Source of the DNA: Candidatus Heimdallarchaeota archaeon
Lineage (GTDB): Archaea; Asgardarchaeota; Heimdallarchaeia; Heimdallarchaeales; Heimdallarchaeaceae
Direction of reading: 5' to 3'
DNA: 64,000 bases
Assembly (NCBI GenBank): GCA_016840095.1
Contig: JAEOSZ010000006.1
Span: forward strand, 29,200-93,199
The stretch's first letter is position 1, and every line of letters begins with the position of its first letter. Under the pieces are notes generated by a model that searched no databases, was not told the DNA's origin, and saw only the letters and a program-made list of their open reading frames with translations. A program made the position numbers and the translations under genes. Of this stretch, positions 12,048-60,249 are shown piece by piece.

Positions 12048-12701
12048 ATGGATACAGTCAAAACATCTACACTGGATGAAATTGCACTTAAGCTTAGAGA
12101 ACACATCGATATGTCTTACTGGGCAGGAAGAGGTAATAGACAATCATTTAGAGAAGATGTCAAGAAACTTGTTGCAGAGGAAAAACTAACAAAAGATGAA
12201 TATAATTATCTACTTAAGAACGAAAGAAGGGTTCTAGTCAAAACTCAACTTATTCATTTAATTCCAGAGTTACAATCACAGGAAGTTTTTGAAAATACAT
12301 TAAAACACCTCTCCAATGTTGTATTTGGAAAAAAATACAAGGAAGCTGAAACAAAGAAAGGAGCATTAGAAAACGATATTATTAGGCAAATAGCTCAGCA
12401 CCTAAACGCAACTTTACATCCTCAGATATCAACTGTAAATGACGGATTTGGTTTGATTAAGCATCTTATTAATGAGAGTCCAGACATCTCTCAAGAACTT
12501 CTTAAAATTTCTAATCAACTAATTGAGATTAGAGATGCCCTCTTAGAAAAAGGTCATAGTCCAATGTTGCTTCGTGAAATTGAACAACTTTCTACAAAAC
12601 TAGTCTTTGCTTCTAAAAGCACTAATCCCGATGATATTCCAAGCAAAGAAGAAATTTTGAGTATGTTAAATGAAATCCAAATAAGCTCTGGAGTTGAGTA
12701 A
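12048..12701 (+). CDS. Hypothetical alpha-helical protein
   Basis: 217-aa ORF with ATG start, divergent from the nucleotidyltransferase; no motif recognised. Confidence 0.75.
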   Translation: MDTVKTSTLDEIALKLREHIDMSYWAGRGNRQSFREDVKKLVAEEKLTKDEYNYLLKNERRVLVKTQLIHLIPELQSQEVFENTLKHLSNVVFGKKYKEAETKKGALENDIIRQIAQHLNATLHPQISTVNDGFGLIKHLINESPDISQELLKISNQLIEIRDALLEKGHSPMLLREIEQLSTKLVFASKSTNPDDIPSKEEILSMLNEIQISSGVE

Positions 12702-12796
12702 AAACCTTACTTAATTCTTCTAATTTTATTCAGAATACACTACTTTGTTATAGTAATAATTTTAAATCGAAGGTTAGTTTCATTCTATAAGCCATT

Positions 12797-49649: not shown

Positions 49650-51461
49650 TTAATCATCATAAGGTGATTTTTTTATACGAATTTGAGCTAGGGAGATAAT
49701 TTGATTCGCTATTTCTTCATTAATTGAAAGTAGTTTCTTTACATCCCCAACATCTGCATTTGCTATTTTCTCAAGAGTTTTATATTCTCGAAGAAGCTTT
49801 TGAACTTTAACTTTGCCAACACCTCTTATCATTTCGAAAATTGAAGTTTGAGTTTTTTTTGCTCTTAGGTGCTTATGATAGTTAATAGCAAATCTATGTG
49901 ATTCATCTCTAACATTTTGCACTAATTTGAGAACAGATGAGCTTTGGTCGAGTTCAATTGGATCATCAGACCATTCTACAAAAATCTCTTCATTCTTCTT
50001 TGCAATACTGATGATTGGAATAGATAATTCAAGTTTTTGTAAAACTTTGATTGCGACATTAAGTTGTCCTTTCCCACCATCAATAATTAGTAAATCGGGC
50101 TGAGGATCGCTTCCTAATGTTTCAGAAGTATATCTCCTCCCTATCACTTCCTCCATCATAGCATAATCATTTGGGTCGGTATAAGTTTTCCTAATCTTGA
50201 ATCTTCTATATAGTTTCTTCTGTGGGAATCCATTCTCAAAAACCACACAAGAACCAACAGAATCTTCTCCCATAAGCGTTGAGATATCAAAACCATGAAT
50301 TATTTGGGGTATCTTATCTAGTTTAAGAACAGATTTCATATCTTCCAGAACTGTATCAAAAGCCTCTAAATGCTTCAAATCCCTCTTATACTTTTGAAAT
50401 TCATTGTGTGCATTTTTCTCTGCAATATCAATGAGTGATTTCGCGATTTTTGTTTTGAAGGTTCTAATGTTAATCTCTTCAGTTTCTTTGAATCTTTCAA
50501 CAAAATTTGGACCAACTAAAATACTAAATTTCGGTTTCCTTTCACCATAGACCAGTGTTACAATCTCACCAGTTGTTTGAAGTTGAATTTCTTCTTCTTT
50601 TGAAAATATCAAATTTGAGATGTTATTAACACGGTGATTTCTTATTTCTAATTTGCTTAATGCTAAATCACCTTCGAATTCATAATGTCCTAAAACATCT
50701 ATATTTCTTTGATTGGAATGTACATCATCCTTAATGTTCAAGATTGACCTAACTGCTTGAACTAAGTCTCTGAGAGTAGCAGCTTTTTCAAAATTCGATT
50801 CTTGAGATGCTGTCCACATCTCTTCCTCAATGTTATCCAATAAATCAGCCACATCTCCCTTTAGAAAAGAAATAACATTCTTCACTGTTTTTCCATATTC
50901 TTCTTTTGATATTTCATTTTTGTAAGGTGACAAACATCTACCTAACCTGTCTCGCATACACCGAGTGGTCGACCCTTTTTTTGTTAACTGTTTCATCTTT
51001 CTACCACAGTTGCATATTGGAAAGAGTCTTTCTACTAATTTTGCTGTTTGTTTTAGCATAGTATTGTTAGGGAAAGGCCCGAAGTAAACACTCTTTGGTA
51101 CTCTTTCATCAGTTTCACGTGCAAATGAGATTTGGGGATACTCTTCTTCCATAGTAATCCTGATGAGTAAATTGGACTTGTCATCCCTTGATCTACTATT
51201 TAACATCGGAGATAATTGCTTTATTAACTTCATTTCAAGAAGCAGTGCTTCAGGATCACTTCGAGTAATGACCCAATCTACACGGTTTGCTAATTCTTGA
51301 AGTTTATCCTCTTTTCTATCAACTGTTGTTTGAAAATGTTGTTTAACTCTGTTTCGAAGATTCTTAGCTTTTCCTACATAGATTACCTTCTCGTCTTTAT
51401 CTTTGATTAGATAAACCCCAGATTCGGTGGGGATTTCCTCAAGATCAGAAAAAAGACTCAT
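49650..51461 (-). CDS. uvrC: Excinuclease ABC subunit C
   Basis: GVY...IYVGKAKNLRNRV, FEKAA.LRD, GFDIS, IDGGKGQL, RDESHRFAI, HhH. Confidence 0.97.
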   Translation of the reverse strand: MSLFSDLEEIPTESGVYLIKDKDEKVIYVGKAKNLRNRVKQHFQTTVDRKEDKLQELANRVDWVITRSDPEALLLEMKLIKQLSPMLNSRSRDDKSNLLIRITMEEEYPQISFARETDERVPKSVYFGPFPNNTMLKQTAKLVERLFPICNCGRKMKQLTKKGSTTRCMRDRLGRCLSPYKNEISKEEYGKTVKNVISFLKGDVADLLDNIEEEMWTASQESNFEKAATLRDLVQAVRSILNIKDDVHSNQRNIDVLGHYEFEGDLALSKLEIRNHRVNNISNLIFSKEEEIQLQTTGEIVTLVYGERKPKFSILVGPNFVERFKETEEINIRTFKTKIAKSLIDIAEKNAHNEFQKYKRDLKHLEAFDTVLEDMKSVLKLDKIPQIIHGFDISTLMGEDSVGSCVVFENGFPQKKLYRRFKIRKTYTDPNDYAMMEEVIGRRYTSETLGSDPQPDLLIIDGGKGQLNVAIKVLQKLELSIPIISIAKKNEEIFVEWSDDPIELDQSSSVLKLVQNVRDESHRFAINYHKHLRAKKTQTSIFEMIRGVGKVKVQKLLREYKTLEKIANADVGDVKKLLSINEEIANQIISLAQIRIKKSPYDD

Positions 51462-53434
51462 CTAGTTTCCACCAGTTTCTCCAGTTCTTTGATTTTATCG
51501 CGATAAAGTGCAGCTTTTTCAAAATCTAAAGTACCTGCTGCTTCAGCCATTTTTTCTTTCAAGTCATCAATTACGTATAGAATATCTTGACTGGTTAGGT
51601 CATCAGGAACCTCTATCTTCTCATCTTCTTTGGGTTCAACTTGCATTAGTGTCTCAACTATTGACCTTACTTCTTTACGAATTGTTGTAGGCTCGATACC
51701 ATGTTTTTTATTGTATTCTTGCTGAATCCTTCTCCTTCTATTGTTCTCTGCTATTGCTTCTTTCATTGAATCTGTGAGATTATCAGCAAACAAAATTACA
51801 CTCCCATGAACATTTCTACTTGCACGACCCATTAGTTGGATTAAAGAGCCTTTTGATCTAAGAAAGCCTTCTTTGTCAGCATCTAGTATAGCAACTAAAG
51901 CTACTTCAGGAAGATCCAATCCTTCTCTTAAAAGATTGATACCTACAACTACGTCATATTTACCAAGTCTAAGGTCTCTTAATATTTCAATCCTATCTAA
52001 AGTATCCACTTCATGATGCAAATATACTGATTTAATTTTCATCTCCAGTAGATAGTCTGATAACATTTCCGCACTTTGTTTTGTAATGGTTGTAACCAAT
52101 ACTCTCTCTCCCTTACAAACTCTCTGATTTATCTCACTGACCAAATCAGTTATTTGTCCTTCTGTTCCCCTAACTTCTATTTTTGGATCAACAAGACCTG
52201 TTGGTCTAATAATCTGTTCTACCACCTGTTCAGAAACTTCGTATTCATAATTCCTAGGAGTAGCACTTGTAAAAACAACATTATGCATGTACTTCTCTGT
52301 TTCCTCAAATCGGAAAGGCCTGTTATCAAATGCAGAAGGTAACCTGAATCCATGTTCAATTAGATTCTTCTTTCTAGAATAGTCTCCAGCATACATCCCT
52401 CGAAGTTGAGGAATAGTTAGATGTGATTCATCGATAATCATCAAAAAATTTTCTGGAAAGTGATCTAACAAACTAAATGGCTTTTCACCAGGTTTTCTTC
52501 TATCGAAGTGACGGGAATAATTTTCTATCCCTGAGCAACCACCAGTTTCTCTCAAAAGCTCCAAATCATAGAGAGTTTTTTGCCTTAATCTGTGTCTCTC
52601 AACTACTTTGCCATCTTTTTCAAATTCAGCTAAACGCATATCTAACTCCAATTTTATATCTTCAAGAGCTGATTCAAAGAAAGCATCGTTTGCAAGATAT
52701 TGAGTTCCAGGATATATTGAAAGGTATTCATATTCTTTCATCATTTCTCCTGTTACAGAATGTCGAGAGGTTAAACGTTCTATCTCATCACCAAAGAATT
52801 CAATTCTATAAACATAATCACCATACAATGGAAAAATATCAATAGAATCACCTCTTACCCTGAAAGTTTTTCTTTCCAATGAAACATCATTTCTTTCGTA
52901 TTGGTTCTTAACTAACTCTAACATCAAATCCTGTCTATCTAAGGTGTCACCCACCTTCAGTGCTATTCTTCTAGAGCGATAAACATCGGGAGGACCTGTT
53001 CCATAGATACACGAAACAGTCGCACAGACAATAACATCTTCACGAGTAGCCAATGCTTCAAGTGCTGTATGACGTAGTCGTTCAATTTCCTTGTTGATAT
53101 CAACATCTTTCTCAATATAGAGATCCTTTGAAGGTAAATATGCTTCAGGTTGATAGTAGTCGTAGAACGAAACATAGTAACAAACAGCAGCTGAAGGAAA
53201 CAATGTTTTGAACTCACCAAATAGCTGTGCTACAAGTGTTTTATTAGGACCAATTACTAAAGATGGTTTCTTAATCTTGTCAATAACTGATGCCATTGTA
53301 AATGTTTTACCTGACCCAGTAACTCCCAGAAGTGTTTGATGTTGATAGTTCTTATTTATTCCTTCCACTAATTGAGATATTGCTTTTGGTTGGTCTCCTT
53401 TTGGAGTGAAAAGTGTTTCTATATCCAGTGGCAT
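51458..53434 (-). CDS. uvrB: Excinuclease ABC subunit B
   Basis: GVTGSGKTFT, YYDYYQPEAY-like, DESH, EQIIRPTGL, GINLLREGLD, FEKAA. Confidence 0.98.
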   Translation of the reverse strand: MPLDIETLFTPKGDQPKAISQLVEGINKNYQHQTLLGVTGSGKTFTMASVIDKIKKPSLVIGPNKTLVAQLFGEFKTLFPSAAVCYYVSFYDYYQPEAYLPSKDLYIEKDVDINKEIERLRHTALEALATREDVIVCATVSCIYGTGPPDVYRSRRIALKVGDTLDRQDLMLELVKNQYERNDVSLERKTFRVRGDSIDIFPLYGDYVYRIEFFGDEIERLTSRHSVTGEMMKEYEYLSIYPGTQYLANDAFFESALEDIKLELDMRLAEFEKDGKVVERHRLRQKTLYDLELLRETGGCSGIENYSRHFDRRKPGEKPFSLLDHFPENFLMIIDESHLTIPQLRGMYAGDYSRKKNLIEHGFRLPSAFDNRPFRFEETEKYMHNVVFTSATPRNYEYEVSEQVVEQIIRPTGLVDPKIEVRGTEGQITDLVSEINQRVCKGERVLVTTITKQSAEMLSDYLLEMKIKSVYLHHEVDTLDRIEILRDLRLGKYDVVVGINLLREGLDLPEVALVAILDADKEGFLRSKGSLIQLMGRASRNVHGSVILFADNLTDSMKEAIAENNRRRRIQQEYNKKHGIEPTTIRKEVRSIVETLMQVEPKEDEKIEVPDDLTSQDILYVIDDLKEKMAEAAGTLDFEKAALYRDKIKELEKLVETR

Positions 53435-53943: not shown

Positions 53944-54204
53944 ATGGTATCAACTATAAAAGCAAAACAACTCATTTTAGATGATTTAGATGTAAAACTA
54001 CCTCATCAAAAAAGAGCTCTTCTTTTATTGGAATCAGATATTTTGAGAGAAAGAATGAAAGGGTATGCTTTATTGACAACTTGTTATCATATGTGTTCTT
54101 CAGATATTCGTGAACATATTAGAAGGAAATGGAAAGGGGAAAAAGACCTAAAAGGAATAAAAAAAGCGTTCATCGATTACTGCAAAAAGATTTTTCATGG
54201 ATGA
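53944..54204 (+). CDS. Small hypothetical helical protein
   Basis: 86-aa ATG ORF preceded by CTTAAATA TATA-like element; convergent with the HEAT gene. Confidence 0.6.
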   Translation: MVSTIKAKQLILDDLDVKLPHQKRALLLLESDILRERMKGYALLTTCYHMCSSDIREHIRRKWKGEKDLKGIKKAFIDYCKKIFHG

Positions 54205-54206
54205 AC

Positions 54207-54983
54207 TTATTCTTTGATTTCTTCTTGTAATGGAAAATAAACAGGGAATATTAGGCGTGCGAAACTTTGATACATTTGAACACTATAATCCTTCTGTTCA
54301 ATTAATCCTTCAAGTTTAACTATCTCAGATTCTGTATAACCTTTCATATCCGGGAATTCATCACGGTCGCCATAGTCCATAACCTTGCAGATTATATCGC
54401 CTACTTGTTCCAATTCGAGGTATGATTCAATCAGAATGTGAACATGTGGAGTTAGTTTTTCTGATTGTTCTTCCTCTGCAATTGAATTAGCTATTCTTAC
54501 TACAGAAAGTATTGCTGCTCTTCTAGTAATATAATCTCTTGCATAAACTACATTCTTCAAAGGGTAAAGAACATCAACATCATCCAAATAACCAATTGCC
54601 CTTATTGCTGCATATTGTAGATCATAATCACTTTCTTCAAGTATTTTTACAAGATAAGGTTTAGATGCATAATCTTTCAAATGTCCTAAAACTTCCAATG
54701 TTGAAAGTTTAATTGCTAATGAACTCTTTTCTATAAGATCATGAAGATAATCTAAGATTTTTGTCTTAAGCTCTGGAAACTTTGAAGCAAATTCAACTAG
54801 TGTTGACGCTGCAGCATTTCTTACATTCCAATCAGAATCAACAATAAGTGGGAATATTTTATTGATACTTTTTGCTTTACCATTCTTCTGAATGAATAGA
54901 GCAAAATAAGCTCTATCTAAAGGATCCTCACTTTTTTGTTTTCCACCAATACGTAATTTTCTGAAGAAATTCACCAAACTCAT
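54207..54983 (-). CDS. HEAT-repeat (PBS-lyase-like) protein with amphipathic N-terminal helix
   Basis: DSDWNVRNAAASTL, SLAIKLSTLEVLG, DYDLQYAAIRAIG, DYITRRAAILSV. Confidence 0.88.
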   Translation of the reverse strand: MSLVNFFRKLRIGGKQKSEDPLDRAYFALFIQKNGKAKSINKIFPLIVDSDWNVRNAAASTLVEFASKFPELKTKILDYLHDLIEKSSLAIKLSTLEVLGHLKDYASKPYLVKILEESDYDLQYAAIRAIGYLDDVDVLYPLKNVVYARDYITRRAAILSVVRIANSIAEEEQSEKLTPHVHILIESYLELEQVGDIICKVMDYGDRDEFPDMKGYTESEIVKLEGLIEQKDYSVQMYQSFARLIFPVYFPLQEEIKE

Positions 54984-56554
54984 AATTCAAACAACCCCTC
55001 TTTTATGAGATAGCTTATGGCACCTCTTTGCGGCTGAGTTAGTTTTCTTAAGAAAGTATAATCTATCTTTCTAACTTCAAACCTTTCTTCTTTTTCTTCA
55101 TCTAAATCGAATTTGTAAGCATCTTTCCTCTTTGTAACTTGAACAGCTCTTGTAACGACGGGTAGGTTGTACGGTGATAATGATTTGTACTTTGCTTTAT
55201 GAACTGCAAACAGTGTTGCTACATGGATTCCGCCTATTTTCTTAAAGACTATAATGTCTGCAAAAGCTGGAAGGATTGTTTTGAAGTCATCTCTGTAGAG
55301 TGACATATGATTATGTAGAATAACTAGTTGATCAATTCCTACTCCGTAATCATTAGCCTCGAACACATAGACTTTCTTATCATCCACTTTTACGTAACCT
55401 TTAGAAGAAATTCTAGGTTTATCATCAAGTAATTGACCAAAAGTGGAATATTTCCTTCTGAAAACTTTACTTACATACTCTTCTATTTGTCTCCAACCAT
55501 ATGCATAGACAGACCAAATATCTGTCCATCTGCTTCTAGAAGAGTGCCAGTGTTCAACTACAAACTCTGAATGAGCATTTTTATTGACTGCTTGTAAATC
55601 TTTGATTTCATCCCAAGTAAATTCTTCAAGAAACTCCAAGTCAGACTTAAATGAGATAAGTTTTTGAAAAACAGTTTCCTCATCCTCATATTTAGTTACA
55701 AGCTTGTTCATAGCAGCAAGACTAAATTCTCCAATTGGAGGTGCAAGAAAAGCTTTCAATTCATTAGGATAAATAATAGATCTATCTTCATGTCTGGTTG
55801 GGAGTTTGTACTCTTCTTTCTCTAGCAAATAATCAATAGCTTTCTTCTGGATATAATGAGCAAAACCTTCATCTATAAGTTCGTGAAGATTTTTCTTTCT
55901 TGCTACTTTGGCCCTTTCATTTATCAGATTAATTGCTTCAATTGAGAAATTATTGAAAAGAGTGTATTTTCGAGCATCTTCTGGTGGAGTGTAAAAATCT
56001 TCAACTCCTGCTTCAGTGAATAATCTAATTACACCGATTAAATCTTGGAAATACTGCCAAGCCCAAACGTGTCTGTTCTGTGAAACTTGGTTTAATTGAA
56101 ACACATTATTTGTCATTAATTCTTTGAGAACCAGATCTAATTGGTATAATTGTGCCAATATTCTCGGTGAGTTCGATTCGGTTTTCTCGTTCATGTATGC
56201 ATGAGCAAAGGCATGAATGAGCATTACTCGCAATGTTAATTCTTGTTCCTTAGTAATTTCTCTTGGAGGGACGGAAAGATAAACCAGGGTTGGTAGGGAA
56301 TTATATACTGTCTCTTTCCCTGTAGGAAGGAAATCGCTAATTCTAGCAGATCGAAGGTTAGTAATTTGTTCAGAAGTTAGTATAGCTTGAGGTGTTCCAG
56401 TATCTTCTATTACTCTATTAATTGAGATATGCATTTCTGGATTAACAAAAATCAGAATCCTGTAATTTTCTGGAGTTTCTCCGACTAGAGTTTTAAAGTC
56501 CTCTCTAGCTTTGTTATAAACCTCTATTACATCACTTAGTTCTTCTTTAAGCAT
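54980..56554 (-). CDS. SpoVR/YcgB-like zincin-fold protein (divergent)
   Basis: ETVYNSLP...LRVMLIHAFAH and LIDEGFAHY, matching recalled SpoVR motifs ELVINSDP...AHVLAH and MNEGWASY. Confidence 0.62.
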   Translation of the reverse strand: MLKEELSDVIEVYNKAREDFKTLVGETPENYRILIFVNPEMHISINRVIEDTGTPQAILTSEQITNLRSARISDFLPTGKETVYNSLPTLVYLSVPPREITKEQELTLRVMLIHAFAHAYMNEKTESNSPRILAQLYQLDLVLKELMTNNVFQLNQVSQNRHVWAWQYFQDLIGVIRLFTEAGVEDFYTPPEDARKYTLFNNFSIEAINLINERAKVARKKNLHELIDEGFAHYIQKKAIDYLLEKEEYKLPTRHEDRSIIYPNELKAFLAPPIGEFSLAAMNKLVTKYEDEETVFQKLISFKSDLEFLEEFTWDEIKDLQAVNKNAHSEFVVEHWHSSRSRWTDIWSVYAYGWRQIEEYVSKVFRRKYSTFGQLLDDKPRISSKGYVKVDDKKVYVFEANDYGVGIDQLVILHNHMSLYRDDFKTILPAFADIIVFKKIGGIHVATLFAVHKAKYKSLSPYNLPVVTRAVQVTKRKDAYKFDLDEEKEERFEVRKIDYTFLRKLTQPQRGAISYLIKEGLFEL

Positions 56555-57932
56555 GAATTATACTCTCCCTTAATATTTGCTCACCCAAATTCTTGATTTG
56601 TGCGGGATCTATTAGAATTGGTTTTGTAATACCTTTCAACATTTGTTTTGTATGTATGTAGATTTCTTTATTTCGTAATGCCTCAGTACCCATCAAGAAG
56701 TATGAGATATTCCAATTTCTGGAACGATCACCTTTCAATGAACTAAAAATTGCGTTCAACTGCTGTAAACATTCCCTAGTATCGGCGTTTGTTTTTGTTT
56801 CAACTTCATCAAAGTATCGTTTAAGTTCCCTGCTTTTCTTATATTCGAAAGGATAGACAGGAACATTGGGCATTCCATCTGTTACAATGGTAAATTGTAC
56901 ATCTATGTCTTTGTCTGTGTGTTGCTTTTTAGCATGTTCTATAGCTGTGATTATACTCTGAACCATGTGTGTTTTTCCTCTTGCTTCAGCAGTAAGAAGA
57001 AGTTGTTCCATTTTTTTATCATCATCAACCACAAAAGGATTCTTAATAATCGGAACAACTGCAAGTTTAAACATATCAAAACGTTTTCTCTTTCTTCTAT
57101 TAATCATTTTAAAATAGTAATAGAGACTAAGACTTGTTAACAGAGCGCCATCCAATCTAGACATTTTTCCTTCAAAAACAGTTTTTTTCATGGATTGACT
57201 CATATCAACTATGAGATAAACCAAAGATCTACGATCCTTTTTTATTCTTACAATGTCTTCTTGTTTAACTTTCGAAGGAGGGACAGTCTGGGAACTTAGA
57301 ATTGCACTCTTATAGGTTTCTTTTAGGCGAATTGAACCTCGAGGTCTTTTTTGAACTTCATCAATGGGTGCAACAGAAATCTGTTTCATCAGATATCTGC
57401 CTAAAATCTTCCCTAGAAGATCCATTACACTTTCTCTAGATATTCTTTTCTTCCTACCAAATGCATCAGTTATTTCAATGTCAACAATTTCAGTTAATTG
57501 ATTTAGTTTCTCTGCTAATTGTTGGAGGTCTACAGTTGCTTCATGCTTAAGCTCTTTTAGAAGTTCCTGGATATACTTGAGAATTTCCTCAACAGTCTGT
57601 AATTCATTTCTGTTGACTCTCTCTAGTACATCAGGCAGAACTCTTTCTCCAATAAATCGGAGAAGCTTCATTTCATTTATTAGTCGATCCTCTTCTTCGG
57701 CTGTAAGAAAAGTATTCATAATTTTTTGAACGATATTGTCAATTGCAACAGCATTTTTAGCAGCGATAGATAAGACAGCACCTTCTCGAGAACTTCTACC
57801 AAGATGTGGATTCCTCCATAAACGTAGTACTTGTGCAGCATCTTCAAATTCTAAAACAAACTCTTGATTAGAATAATGCTGCAGAGGATCTGCAAATTCT
57901 GTTTCTGTTACGAAATATATTCGGTGGGGCAT
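56547..57932 (-). CDS. vWA-domain protein (YeaH/CoxE-like AAA+ partner)
   Basis: IRLKETYKSAI pre-vWA motif; MIDAS DMSQS...T...TDG intact; N-terminal helical/coiled-coil region. Confidence 0.85.
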   Translation of the reverse strand: MPHRIYFVTETEFADPLQHYSNQEFVLEFEDAAQVLRLWRNPHLGRSSREGAVLSIAAKNAVAIDNIVQKIMNTFLTAEEEDRLINEMKLLRFIGERVLPDVLERVNRNELQTVEEILKYIQELLKELKHEATVDLQQLAEKLNQLTEIVDIEITDAFGRKKRISRESVMDLLGKILGRYLMKQISVAPIDEVQKRPRGSIRLKETYKSAILSSQTVPPSKVKQEDIVRIKKDRRSLVYLIVDMSQSMKKTVFEGKMSRLDGALLTSLSLYYYFKMINRRKRKRFDMFKLAVVPIIKNPFVVDDDKKMEQLLLTAEARGKTHMVQSIITAIEHAKKQHTDKDIDVQFTIVTDGMPNVPVYPFEYKKSRELKRYFDEVETKTNADTRECLQQLNAIFSSLKGDRSRNWNISYFLMGTEALRNKEIYIHTKQMLKGITKPILIDPAQIKNLGEQILRESIIHA

Positions 57933-57970
57933 TTTATCATCTCTAAAAGTTACTTGATAGAGTTTGAAGA

Positions 57971-59521
57971 TTAAATATAATCTACTCTGAGTAACTGTTC
58001 ATATGATGGTTTTAGTTTTTCCACTACTTGGTTTCGAATGTTTTCTTTATATTTATCCAAGCCTTCAAATTTCACTACTAGTTCTGCTAATTCAGCATCA
58101 CTTAATGCTTTCATTTTAGATATGTCTTCAGATATATCTTGAACATTAATAGAAACGTCTGATTCTTTGATAGATGTTCGTAAAACAATCTTAATTTGTT
58201 GTAGCGCATCGTTAATCATAGAAACTGGAACATCATATGCATCCATTGTACTTCTTATTCTTTCCAATGTAATCACGTTGATATCCTTTGTTTCGTCTTC
58301 TCTTGCTTGAAGCAAAACTGTTTCTCCTATGATATTGTTCATAGTACGAAGATCAATATGGGGATTTCTCTGAGGATCATGAATTTCATCAAGACCAGAA
58401 TAAAAGTCACTTCTAGCCATTCTGCTTTCAGAACGAATACCTTTTCTTTTTAGATTCTCTGGAAGTGAATTATTTCCTAAGAATGCTAGAAAATCAACTG
58501 CTAATCTACTAACAAAATCAGTAGTTTCTTTTTCCAATTCATGAAGTTGAATAATTGAGGGATTAGCTGTAATTTTTCTTCTGGATAGAATGATTTGTTC
58601 CTCAAACATATCTTTGATGATTTGCTCTCTGCTTTCAACAGAACGAGCAGGCCATAGAACTTCAGGAATACGATTAATGATTGGCTGACTTTCTTCACCA
58701 AAAACTGTCAAAGGAGCATTTGAGGTGAAAAGAACAGCACCATCAATGTATACTGGTTCACCTTGAATATTATACTTAATACCCATAGGTTCTTCAAGAA
58801 AACCCATCAGGGATTCTAATAGGCTTAGTGGTAGTCTCTGTATTTCATTAACAACAATAAAACCATGAGATAGAACTCCTACTTTATGTGAAGTTGCAGC
58901 ATATGTGGTTGATGTATCTTTTCCGAATAGTTCTTCTAGATTTTCTACACCAGCAAGAAGCATGTATAAACTTTCAGGATCAGTTCTTGGATCTAGTTGA
59001 GCTCTTCTTACTATGGTTTTAGTGGCTCCAAGTTTGCCTAATCGATTGACTACTTCTTTTGGAGGAATTTCAAGAACACTATTGGTATTATCTAAATCAA
59101 CTTCATTTCCATCAGCAGCAAGAATTGTTTCAATGTTATTTCTACAATATGGACAGAGAGATTGCATTACACGAATTCCAGCAAAAGGATTCGCAGGGAA
59201 ATTGTTCATTACATCTATTATATATCCAGCATCCTCTAAGAATGGACATCCTTCAATATGATATTTAAAGTTGTTAATCTCCCTAACAACGTGATCTAAC
59301 AATATTCTAGCAAACAAAGATTTGGCTTCACCAGTTGGACCAGTAAGAAGAACTTTACCTCCTACTGCTAACTTATCCATTACTACGTTCTTACCAATTT
59401 CATTTCCTCTAACGCTGACATCTTTTGAGACTCTATCACGGAATTCAGGATTCATAAGGATAGACCGAACAGAAAATCCTACATAATTATCCTTCATTAA
59501 TTTCTGTATTGTGAGTGTCAT
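57971..59521 (-). CDS. AAA+ ATPase, PrkA/YeaG / Mg-chelatase-like clade
   Basis: Walker A GPTGEAKS, YHIEGCPFLED...SLCPYCR insert, Walker B FIVVNE, sensor-1 FTSN, NR arginine finger. Confidence 0.85.
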   Translation of the reverse strand: MTLTIQKLMKDNYVGFSVRSILMNPEFRDRVSKDVSVRGNEIGKNVVMDKLAVGGKVLLTGPTGEAKSLFARILLDHVVREINNFKYHIEGCPFLEDAGYIIDVMNNFPANPFAGIRVMQSLCPYCRNNIETILAADGNEVDLDNTNSVLEIPPKEVVNRLGKLGATKTIVRRAQLDPRTDPESLYMLLAGVENLEELFGKDTSTTYAATSHKVGVLSHGFIVVNEIQRLPLSLLESLMGFLEEPMGIKYNIQGEPVYIDGAVLFTSNAPLTVFGEESQPIINRIPEVLWPARSVESREQIIKDMFEEQIILSRRKITANPSIIQLHELEKETTDFVSRLAVDFLAFLGNNSLPENLKRKGIRSESRMARSDFYSGLDEIHDPQRNPHIDLRTMNNIIGETVLLQAREDETKDINVITLERIRSTMDAYDVPVSMINDALQQIKIVLRTSIKESDVSINVQDISEDISKMKALSDAELAELVVKFEGLDKYKENIRNQVVEKLKPSYEQLLRVDYI

Positions 59522-59538
59522 GAGCTTTACCTTTTTTA

Positions 59539-60141
59539 TTATATATTTTGATCATTTTCTTCTTCTGTAGCAAATTGAACTTGCACAGGTTTGATTTTTT
59601 CTAATAATTTTTCTTTTTCTTCCCAAGACTTTACATGTCCAATATGTATTACTCTCTTTAACCATTTGAGAGCTTCAAGTAAATTAGGTACTTCTGGTAC
59701 TTCAAAGAGGTTCCATAACCTATCAGTTAAGCGAATTAGAGATAGATTTTCAATTAATTCTCCACGAGATAAAGCTCCTTGGAGGTTTGAATTGTAAGCA
59801 CAGATAGCAATTGGAAGACTTTTTGTTTCTGAATCCCAAATTACCTTTTCCCAGAAATAGTTTCTTTCGTGCTTAATCATTTCCTCTTTGGTTGCGTCAA
59901 TTAGATATAACAGTCCTTCAAATGGAACAAATTGCTTATGCTTGAATTTGAACCCTAAAGAATATGGTAATTCAGTGAGTGAACTATCCAATATAAATTC
60001 TGAGAGAGATGTACTTGATCTCATCAACAAGATTCTATTTCTAGTAGCAGGGATATTATCACCTAAAACTAAAATAGATACCTCTGGGTAACCTAGTCTT
60101 CTTTTAAGGGATTTTTTCCAATTCTGAACAAAGCTAGTCAT
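59539..60141 (-). CDS. Degenerate Arf/Arl-family small GTPase (pseudo-GTPase)
   Basis: Amphipathic N-helix, ILVLG, GLLYLIDAT, LPIAIC, LQGALS..EL...LSL..L.DR.W, LLEALKWL match the Arf scaffold; G1, G3 and G4 motifs lost. Confidence 0.75.
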   Translation of the reverse strand: MTSFVQNWKKSLKRRLGYPEVSILVLGDNIPATRNRILLMRSSTSLSEFILDSSLTELPYSLGFKFKHKQFVPFEGLLYLIDATKEEMIKHERNYFWEKVIWDSETKSLPIAICAYNSNLQGALSRGELIENLSLIRLTDRLWNLFEVPEVPNLLEALKWLKRVIHIGHVKSWEEKEKLLEKIKPVQVQFATEEENDQNI

Positions 60142-60249
60142 TGGGTTTCGCTAAAGAGCATCATATGTGCATCTTTATCAATTTTGCGAATAAGAAGTTA
60201 TTACTAGTATAGAGGAAAAGTTTAGAATATCAGCAAAAATGAGAAACTA

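Follow-up and report, generated by a model that had tools for sequence, protein, structure and literature searches.

Our goal was to understand whether five adjacent genes of a Candidatus Heimdallarchaeota archaeon encode a known kind of molecular machine, a distant relative of one, or something else. The genes occupy positions 54207-60141 of a 64,000-nucleotide stretch of DNA, which we analysed as a whole and refer to as the window (assembly GCA_016840095.1, contig JAEOSZ010000006.1, positions 29,200 to 93,199). In bacteria and haloarchaea, an AAA+ ATPase (PrkA), a vWA protein (YeaH) and SpoVR form a module, normally encoded by one operon in that order. We consider it probable (about 65%) that the locus is a Heimdallarchaeia-specific, very diverged descendant of this PrkA-YeaH-SpoVR module, with two lineage-specific subunits. 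This view is based on a PrkA-specific AAA+ core, a SpoVR-like fold in the third protein of the triad, a YeaH-like layout of the vWA protein, and the canonical gene order. The three bacterial genes behave as a unit, their cofitness being conserved across six bacteria (10.1101/072470). PrkA of Bacillus anthracis has recently been described as an AAA+ ATPase required in sporulation and in the stress response (PMC13001217).

The locus consists of five minus-strand open reading frames (ORFs). From first to last gene, their spacing is a 17-bp gap, a 38-bp gap, an 8-bp overlap and a 4-bp overlap. An earlier inspection of the letters (below, the sequence-only reading) had described five co-oriented genes with these gaps and overlaps, in exact agreement with the ORF listing. 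The motifs that it quoted all occur in the translations: YHIEGCPFLED and SLCPYCR in the AAA+ protein, DMSQS and TDG in the vWA protein, and ETVYNSLP, HAFAH and EGFAHY in the 524-residue protein. The genes, in order, are as follows.

59539..60141, minus strand: P0001, Arf-derived pseudo-GTPase, 200 amino acids (aa), first gene of the unit
57971..59521, minus strand: P0002, AAA+ ATPase with PrkA-type core, 516 aa, second gene
56547..57932, minus strand: P0003, vWA protein, 461 aa, with a complete metal ion-dependent adhesion site (MIDAS) and a helical N-terminal half, third gene
54980..56554, minus strand: P0004, predicted SpoVR-fold protein without conserved metal ligands, 524 aa, start overlapping the vWA gene by 8 bp
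54207..54983, minus strand: P0005, HEAT-repeat protein with a basic N-terminal segment, 258 aa, start overlapping the SpoVR-like gene by 4 bp

A PrkA-specific match in the AAA+ protein

P0002 has the Walker A motif GPTGEAKS, followed by an insert containing cysteines and a Walker B motif in which N225-E226 stands in place of D-E. In 31 AAA+ homologues, the Walker A lysine (G-P-T-G-E-A-K-[ST]), N225-E226, the sensor-1 residue N268 and several arginines are invariant. The Pfam matches of P0002 are weak and confined to Sigma54_activat and AAA_5. The AAA+ family as a whole comprises 108 clusters, all from Asgard sources and nearly all named 'hypothetical'.

We compared this family with a PrkA profile, made from E. 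coli YeaG, proteobacterial homologues, and the PrkA proteins of triads from Thermomicrobium, Pontibacillus, Sphingobium and Mesorhizobium. The hhalign probability was 93.7% (E 1.8e-7) over 176 columns, with P0002 residues 58-270 aligned to YeaG residues 107-306. The cysteine insert is part of the alignment: G-C-P-F-L-E-D ... S-L-C-P-Y-C-R lies opposite G-C-P-M-H-E-E ... L-C-P-W-C-R of Thermomicrobium PrkA. Furthermore, the Walker B motifs of both families lack the canonical aspartate and share the continuation E-x-x-[KR]-x-P. Fourteen canonical MoxR proteins from the same genomes served as a control. These aligned with the AAA+ family over 45 columns (E 4.5e-5), in the Walker A region only, and the PrkA profile gave no significant match to them. 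Hence, the link to PrkA is specific and not a generic AAA+ likeness, and the PrkA assignment of the sequence-only reading, cysteine insert included, is supported.

Note that the breadth of the profile matters. With single E. coli sequences, or a narrow proteobacterial profile, hhalign found no significant match for any of the three triad pairs. Adding the four diverse triads made the PrkA match significant; those to SpoVR and YeaH stayed non-significant. The alignments of this analysis are shallow, with 13-31 rows. Sequence searches of solved structures with the AAA+, vWA and 524-residue proteins, and with the AAA+ profile, returned nothing useful, and Foldseek comparison of the AAA+ model with the PDB gave generic AAA+ matches only, for example HslU and MCM.

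Two side observations concern these ATPases. In genus g3, the three loci examined (L011, L012 and L042) have other residues at all three cysteine positions of the insert (T/G-S-P ... L-S-P-Y/F-S/A-R). Should the insert be a zinc site, the genus would have lost it. Separately, Heimdallarchaeia genomes carry many canonical MoxR proteins (AAA_3), with 3-14 matches per genome and 7 in the genome of the window.

The 524-residue protein is SpoVR-like in predicted fold

P0004 has no sequence match in Pfam, NCBIfam or the PDB. Since a profile of 17 orthologues finds just 20 clusters among 1.84 billion representative proteins, the family is an orphan at the level of sequence. Its AlphaFold model is of good quality, with a pLDDT of 80.4 and a pTM of 0.83. 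The 30 nearest ESM-Atlas models listed reduce to two clusters, both SpoVR (TM 0.53 and 0.54, with 368 residues aligned between query positions 6 and 522). In the predicted model, the N-terminal 340 residues adopt a zincin-like fold. The proposal that this protein belongs with SpoVR and zincins thus found backing in structure prediction. Foldseek of the same model against the PDB gave no match with E <= 0.001, and the language-model neighbours of P0004 were unnamed bacterial clusters only, a recognition below the usual level.

Permissive hhalign alignment of P0004 with SpoVR is colinear over 389 columns and pairs three motifs in order. These are E-T-V-Y-N-S-L-P with E-I-V-I-N-S-N-P, the H-A-F-A-H-A helix with A-H-A-C-Y-G-H, and D-E-G-F-A-H-Y with N-E-G-W-A-T-F-W-H. 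A homologue search with YcgB listed proteins that were all at least 75% identical, and was of no use for widening the SpoVR profile.

Residues invariant in the SpoVR set that we compared are, in YcgB numbering, H122, H127, N282-E283-G284 and H290. The P0004 positions aligned to these invariant residues (H117, E122 and D228-E229-G230) vary within its family; only F231 is nearly invariant. The two histidines and the glutamate of the P0004 motifs vary likewise; in family f3, the helix reads Q-L-L-A-M-A or H-T-L-A-K-A. Because HAFAH and EGFAHY are not conserved in the family, a general zinc site is unlikely. The three motifs named in the sequence-only reading are those that the alignment pairs with SpoVR, at a non-significant score (E ~0.03). 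We also rejected a zincin protease: unlike gluzincin metallopeptidases (M1, M32, M3, thermolysin), P0004 has neither HExxH nor a conserved catalytic glutamate, its histidines are not conserved, and its HxxxH is replaced by other residues in other families. Judged from the model, P0004 reads as a SpoVR-fold protein and not a metalloenzyme.

Canonical SpoVR is rare in this phylum. The Pfam model scored above its cut-off in 1 of 301 Asgard genomes, a Heimdallarchaeia-class metagenome-assembled genome with short contigs and 6% contamination. The gene (L065, G293:C578, 823-3111, minus strand) encodes 762 aa. With a short contig and this contamination, an origin outside the archaea is possible. The Pfam match of the gene falls into two parts, model positions 1-44 and 43-404 lying ~750 bp apart, which suggests an intein-like insertion; the ESM Atlas includes a cluster of SpoVR proteins with LAGLIDADG_3. 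In other Asgard classes, ORFs of ~1300 aa (L066, L067, L068 and L070; G049, G079 and G070) have weak partial SpoVR matches (E 1e-5 to 7e-4), which cover model positions ~251-330, around the N-E-G-W-A motif. They may represent a further family of zincin-like proteins.

Layout of the vWA protein

The Pfam match of P0003 is a weak one to VWA_2 (E 0.07). Across 18 orthologues, its MIDAS residues D243, S245, S247, T321, D352 and G353 do not vary, nor does the M-P-x-R at the N-terminus. In a colinear, non-significant alignment with YeaH, these six residues lie opposite D256, S258, S260, T315, D346 and G347, and an L-P motif in the N-terminal half is also aligned. The two proteins are alike in length (461 aa for P0003, 427 aa for YeaH). 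Furthermore, P0003 has the YeaH-type layout, a C-terminal vWA domain with DxSxS, GT and DG motifs behind a long N-terminal region. Such a layout is compatible with YeaH ancestry, without showing it. Hence, what survives of the earlier link between this protein and YeaH is a complete MIDAS in a YeaH-like architecture; the link is architectural only, with no significant YeaH match.

Gene order and distribution

Synteny was assessed, with ORF calling, in 22 loci from six Heimdallarchaeia families, comprising the window and 21 further fetched loci. The order AAA+, vWA, 524-residue protein, HEAT is kept in 22/22, with identities of 31-95% for the 524-residue protein. In all 22, the HEAT gene immediately follows the SpoVR-like gene, and its start codon usually overlaps the stop codon of the latter. 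The Arf-like gene is directly upstream of the AAA+ gene in 16/22. Hence, both genes that the sequence-only reading had added to the triad are syntenic with it in related genomes. Since the order recurs at every locus across six families, the arrangement is not a chance one. The order AAA+, vWA, SpoVR is also that of four canonical bacterial loci.

The 524-residue protein is found in 50 of 301 sampled species genomes of the phylum, and is single-copy in 38 of 41 relatives. Every carrier falls either in the same order as the window, in families f1-f4, or in a single additional family of the class, f6. Within the 301 genomes, the protein was not found in f5 (0/21), f7 or any other class. This distribution was the same with a single-protein query and a family-profile query. 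The Arf-like gene nearly mirrors it, with counts of 29/30 in f1, 1/1 in f2, 12/12 in f3, 11/12 in f6, 0/22 in f5 and 0/2 in f7; the exception is f4, with no match at 1e-15. Where the Arf-like gene is not adjacent to the AAA+ gene, most genomes carry one copy elsewhere. The two families thus co-occur in f1, f2, f3 and f6, and neither occurs in f5 or f7, a pattern and not a statistic, since relatives are non-independent samples.

In two distant genomes, the set is rearranged. The vWA and SpoVR-like genes remain together with a gene for a longer HEAT-matching protein, which takes the position of the HEAT gene; its HEAT matches are significant at locus L061 and below the cut-off at L059. In one genome the AAA+ gene is divergently adjacent; in the other it shares the contig at a distance of ~40 kb. 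This persistence of linkage through rearrangement argues for a functional unit. Small proteins encoded beside distant AAA+ genes (192 aa at L064 and 178 aa at L061) were considered as pseudo-Arf candidates and rejected, having no similarity to the pseudo-Arf profile. At L061, the rearranged module has an IS605 OrfB/TnpB-like gene (56-1348) on its flank, and a canonical Arf/Ras/Roc GTPase gene (12167-12748) lies ~4 kb downstream of the HEAT-like gene.

An Arf-derived pseudo-GTPase and a HEAT-repeat protein

The first gene product, P0001, matches the Pfam Arf model (PF00025) with 26.2 bits against a cut-off of 22.3. The match is confined to the C-terminal half (residues 71-163 on model positions 79-172). 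Its best solved relatives are Asgard Arf GTPases (ArfR; 8ouk and 8oul; E 4.5e-6), which align from beta4 to the C-terminal helix, with NKQD opposite YNSN. Unlike these GTPases, the P0001 family has a deletion in the switch region. Furthermore, in 13 orthologues drawn from three families there is no P-loop (GxxxxGK[ST]), no DxxG, and no NKxD at the G4 position; three regular-expression matches to [NT]KxD all lie off that position. With G1, G3 and G4 gone in 13/13, loss of nucleotide binding must be old and stable. We conclude that P0001 is a pseudo-GTPase, and that the Arf relic seen in the sequence-only reading is one across the whole orthologous family. Arf is a stand-alone switch, whereas the P0001 gene is linked to an AAA+/vWA module.

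The sequence-only reading had also given the pseudo-Arf an amphipathic N-terminal helix. This holds in the window's own family, where the segment is basic and strongly amphipathic in 4/5 orthologues (hydrophobic moment 0.55-0.86). It does not extend to eight orthologues of other families, f3 and f6 among them, in which the segment is short, or its amphipathicity weak or absent.

P0005 is a clear HEAT-repeat protein, matching Pfam HEAT_2 (PF13646) with E 1.7e-15 and 57.5 bits (cut-off 27.7), and HEAT (PF02985) with 29.6 bits (cut-off 23.5). Its residues 1-25 are basic in 16/16 orthologues, with a net charge of +1 to +7. Complex prediction for the AAA+ and HEAT proteins with the pseudo-Arf as partner scored 0.70, compared with 0.63 when the AAA+ chain was replaced, and so speaks neither for nor against binding.

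Evaluation of alternative explanations

Compared with canonical triads, the locus shares an 8-bp overlap between the second and third genes of the triad (seen also in Thermomicrobium and Pontibacillus), the PrkA-type cysteine insert and aspartate-free Walker B of the AAA+ core, a vWA protein comparable in size and in the location of its MIDAS, and a third protein of SpoVR-like fold with colinear motifs. The differences are as follows. The AAA+ protein is without the C-terminal, kinase-like domain of PrkA, and the SpoVR-like family has lost H122, H127, E283 and H290 of YcgB. A HEAT subunit has been gained, as has a pseudo-Arf in most lineages. Finally, the set is limited to part of Heimdallarchaeia and goes unseen by Pfam triad models.

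Several results weigh against descent from the triad. The sequence-only reading had proposed checks against PrkA, DUF444 and SpoVR profiles. None of the Pfam triad models (AAA_PrkA, PrkA, DUF444 and SpoVR) detects any of the proteins. For P0002, there is no match to AAA_PrkA (PF08298) or PrkA (PF06798) at E up to 10, and both are absent from the 25 Pfam families most often matched by 31 members of the AAA+ family. P0003 does not match DUF444 (PF04285). P0004 does not match SpoVR (PF04293, with SpoVR_C, PF24755), and PF04293 was not found in the genome of the window. The C-terminal ~230 residues of P0002 (286-516) reach E 0.3-0.4 with the PrkA profile, hence no similarity to the C-terminal domain of PrkA; the protein has 516 aa, compared with 599-649 aa in five PrkA proteins. 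The closest solved folds to the AAA+ model are RavA and BchI, not PrkA. Note that a solved PrkA-type entry, 9xip, found by sequence, was not among the fold matches listed and may lie outside the structure libraries. Scores for the vWA protein with YeaH (E 0.06-0.19), and for P0004 with SpoVR (E ~0.03), are non-significant, and a TM of 0.53 between two predicted models is modest. Furthermore, because the canonical triad is itself functionally obscure, any mechanism must be drawn by analogy.

The main alternative is an independent AAA+/vWA chaperone or cofactor-insertion system of the MoxR/ChlI type, such as RavA-ViaA, CbbQO, NorQD or the ChlI/ChlD/ChlH chelatase. In such a system, the 524-residue and HEAT proteins would be client-holding subunits, and the likeness to the PrkA triad generic or convergent. 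The pairing of an AAA+ ATPase with a MIDAS-bearing vWA protein is indeed that of RavA-ViaA, BchI/BchD and CbbQO, and the closest solved folds come from this group. However, canonical MoxR of the same genomes aligns with the AAA+ family over 45 columns, in the Walker A region, and PrkA over 176. The cysteine insert and the loss of the Walker B aspartate (here Asn) are common to PrkA and the AAA+ family. The other partners also differ: the third gene product is SpoVR-like in fold, and the gene order is that of the PrkA triad. We therefore regard this alternative as unlikely.

The sequence-only reading had gone further, with an Arf relic and a HEAT protein recruiting the AAA+/vWA machine to membranes; trafficking components of eukaryotic type would thereby be joined to a stress module of prokaryotes. 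Asgard proteins of the Arf family, from which the pseudo-Arf derives, are membrane-associated (PMC11914678) and offer a precedent, and the basic N-termini of the HEAT orthologues and of the pseudo-Arf in the window's family, the latter strongly amphipathic, point the same way. Against this, the amphipathic segment of the pseudo-Arf is weak or absent in the other families, the locus is linked to no gene for a transmembrane or trafficking protein, and a protein without a nucleotide switch has no known way of regulating membrane binding. We consider membrane recruitment very unlikely. A broader version seems quite unlikely: in it, pseudo-Arf and HEAT would act as paired adaptors, by which a remodelling machine of AAA+/vWA/SpoVR type is docked either to membranes or to other Asgard proteins of eukaryote-like character. 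If true, it would mean that the archaeal lineage closest to eukaryotes had recruited an Arf scaffold into a prokaryotic ATPase machine, as a subunit that needs no nucleotide. Conflict systems include AAA+/vWA ternary systems, and the HEAT protein has weak PADLOC matches to HEAT-ARM (E 2e-5) and WGR (E 1e-3) models. Yet an anti-virus or conflict system, combining NTPase, vWA and effector, is barely credible here. The module is single-copy, vertically conserved and syntenic in six families, with housekeeping flanks; no PADLOC system model matches, and the proteins showed no effector domain, nuclease and protease included, whose catalytic residues are conserved. We conclude that the three middle genes are best read as a diverged PrkA-YeaH-SpoVR triad in canonical order, as the sequence-only reading had suggested, with PrkA profile match, SpoVR-like fold and gene order all in agreement.

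A possible mode of action and its significance

If the locus is a diverged triad, its parts suggest how it might work. The AAA+ protein keeps the Walker A lysine, Walker B glutamate, sensor-1 residue and arginines, and has asparagine for the Walker B aspartate. It would form an oligomer and act on a client with slow or regulated ATP turnover. MoxR/vWA and ChlI/ChlD machines suggest that the vWA protein would hold this client through its MIDAS site. A substrate-binding or regulatory scaffold may be provided by the SpoVR-fold protein, with its inactivated zincin-like cleft, and the tightly coupled HEAT protein. For the pseudo-Arf, the proposed role would be that of an adaptor or regulatory subunit that needs no nucleotide. 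If the bacterial triad is a guide, the most likely output is a stress or nutrient-adaptation response rather than trafficking.

In the literature that could be searched, no paper linked Asgard archaea with PrkA, SpoVR or DUF444, and the Asgard Arf preprint that we searched says nothing of gene neighbourhoods, of operons or of degenerate Arf proteins. Nor did we find a paper describing the five-gene combination, in keeping with its earlier presentation as a candidate undescribed system. In sum, the sequence-only reading could have fallen on missing synteny, a different fold or a match to a described operon; synteny was seen, a zincin-like fold was predicted, and no matching operon was found in the literature searched.

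PrkA-YeaH-SpoVR is among the most widespread gene triads of bacteria, and is still poorly understood biochemically. The locus suggests that a version invisible to Pfam is a conserved, single-copy feature of several Heimdallarchaeia families, as part of a five-gene set. Its AAA+ core without the kinase-like domain, and its SpoVR-fold protein without conserved metal ligands, are natural experiments that could show which parts of the triad are essential. Furthermore, the locus adds a documented Asgard case in which an Arf-family protein has become a pseudo-GTPase with ties to an ATPase machine. This bears on how small-GTPase scaffolds were re-used before eukaryotes arose.

Flanking genes and candidate regulatory regions

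Two stretches bordering the unit may carry its transcription signals.

60142..60249, minus strand: upstream intergenic region, candidate promoter region, 108 A+T-rich bases between the pseudo-Arf gene and the divergent NUDIX gene
54150..54206, minus strand: T-rich stretch 3' of the HEAT stop codon, predicted archaeal terminator with oligo-T runs

By position and A+T richness, the upstream stretch is likely to hold the promoter. Archaeal transcription termination takes place at oligo-T. Runs of 5-7 T occur within ~55 bases after the HEAT stop codon, and the T-rich stretch there probably contains a terminator.

The neighbouring genes are housekeeping genes in other transcription units, with no relation to the five-gene set. 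Upstream lie the divergent NUDIX gene and a gene for a pyridoxal phosphate-dependent enzyme. Downstream, beyond a 770-bp spacer and on the same strand, are uvrB and uvrC (658 and 603 aa; window 49650-53434, minus strand), which encode bacterial-type nucleotide excision repair proteins and overlap each other by 4 bp. Within the spacer, an 86-aa ORF without a family match lies on the plus strand (window 53944-54204). Its end is 2 bp short of the HEAT stop codon, on the opposite strand.

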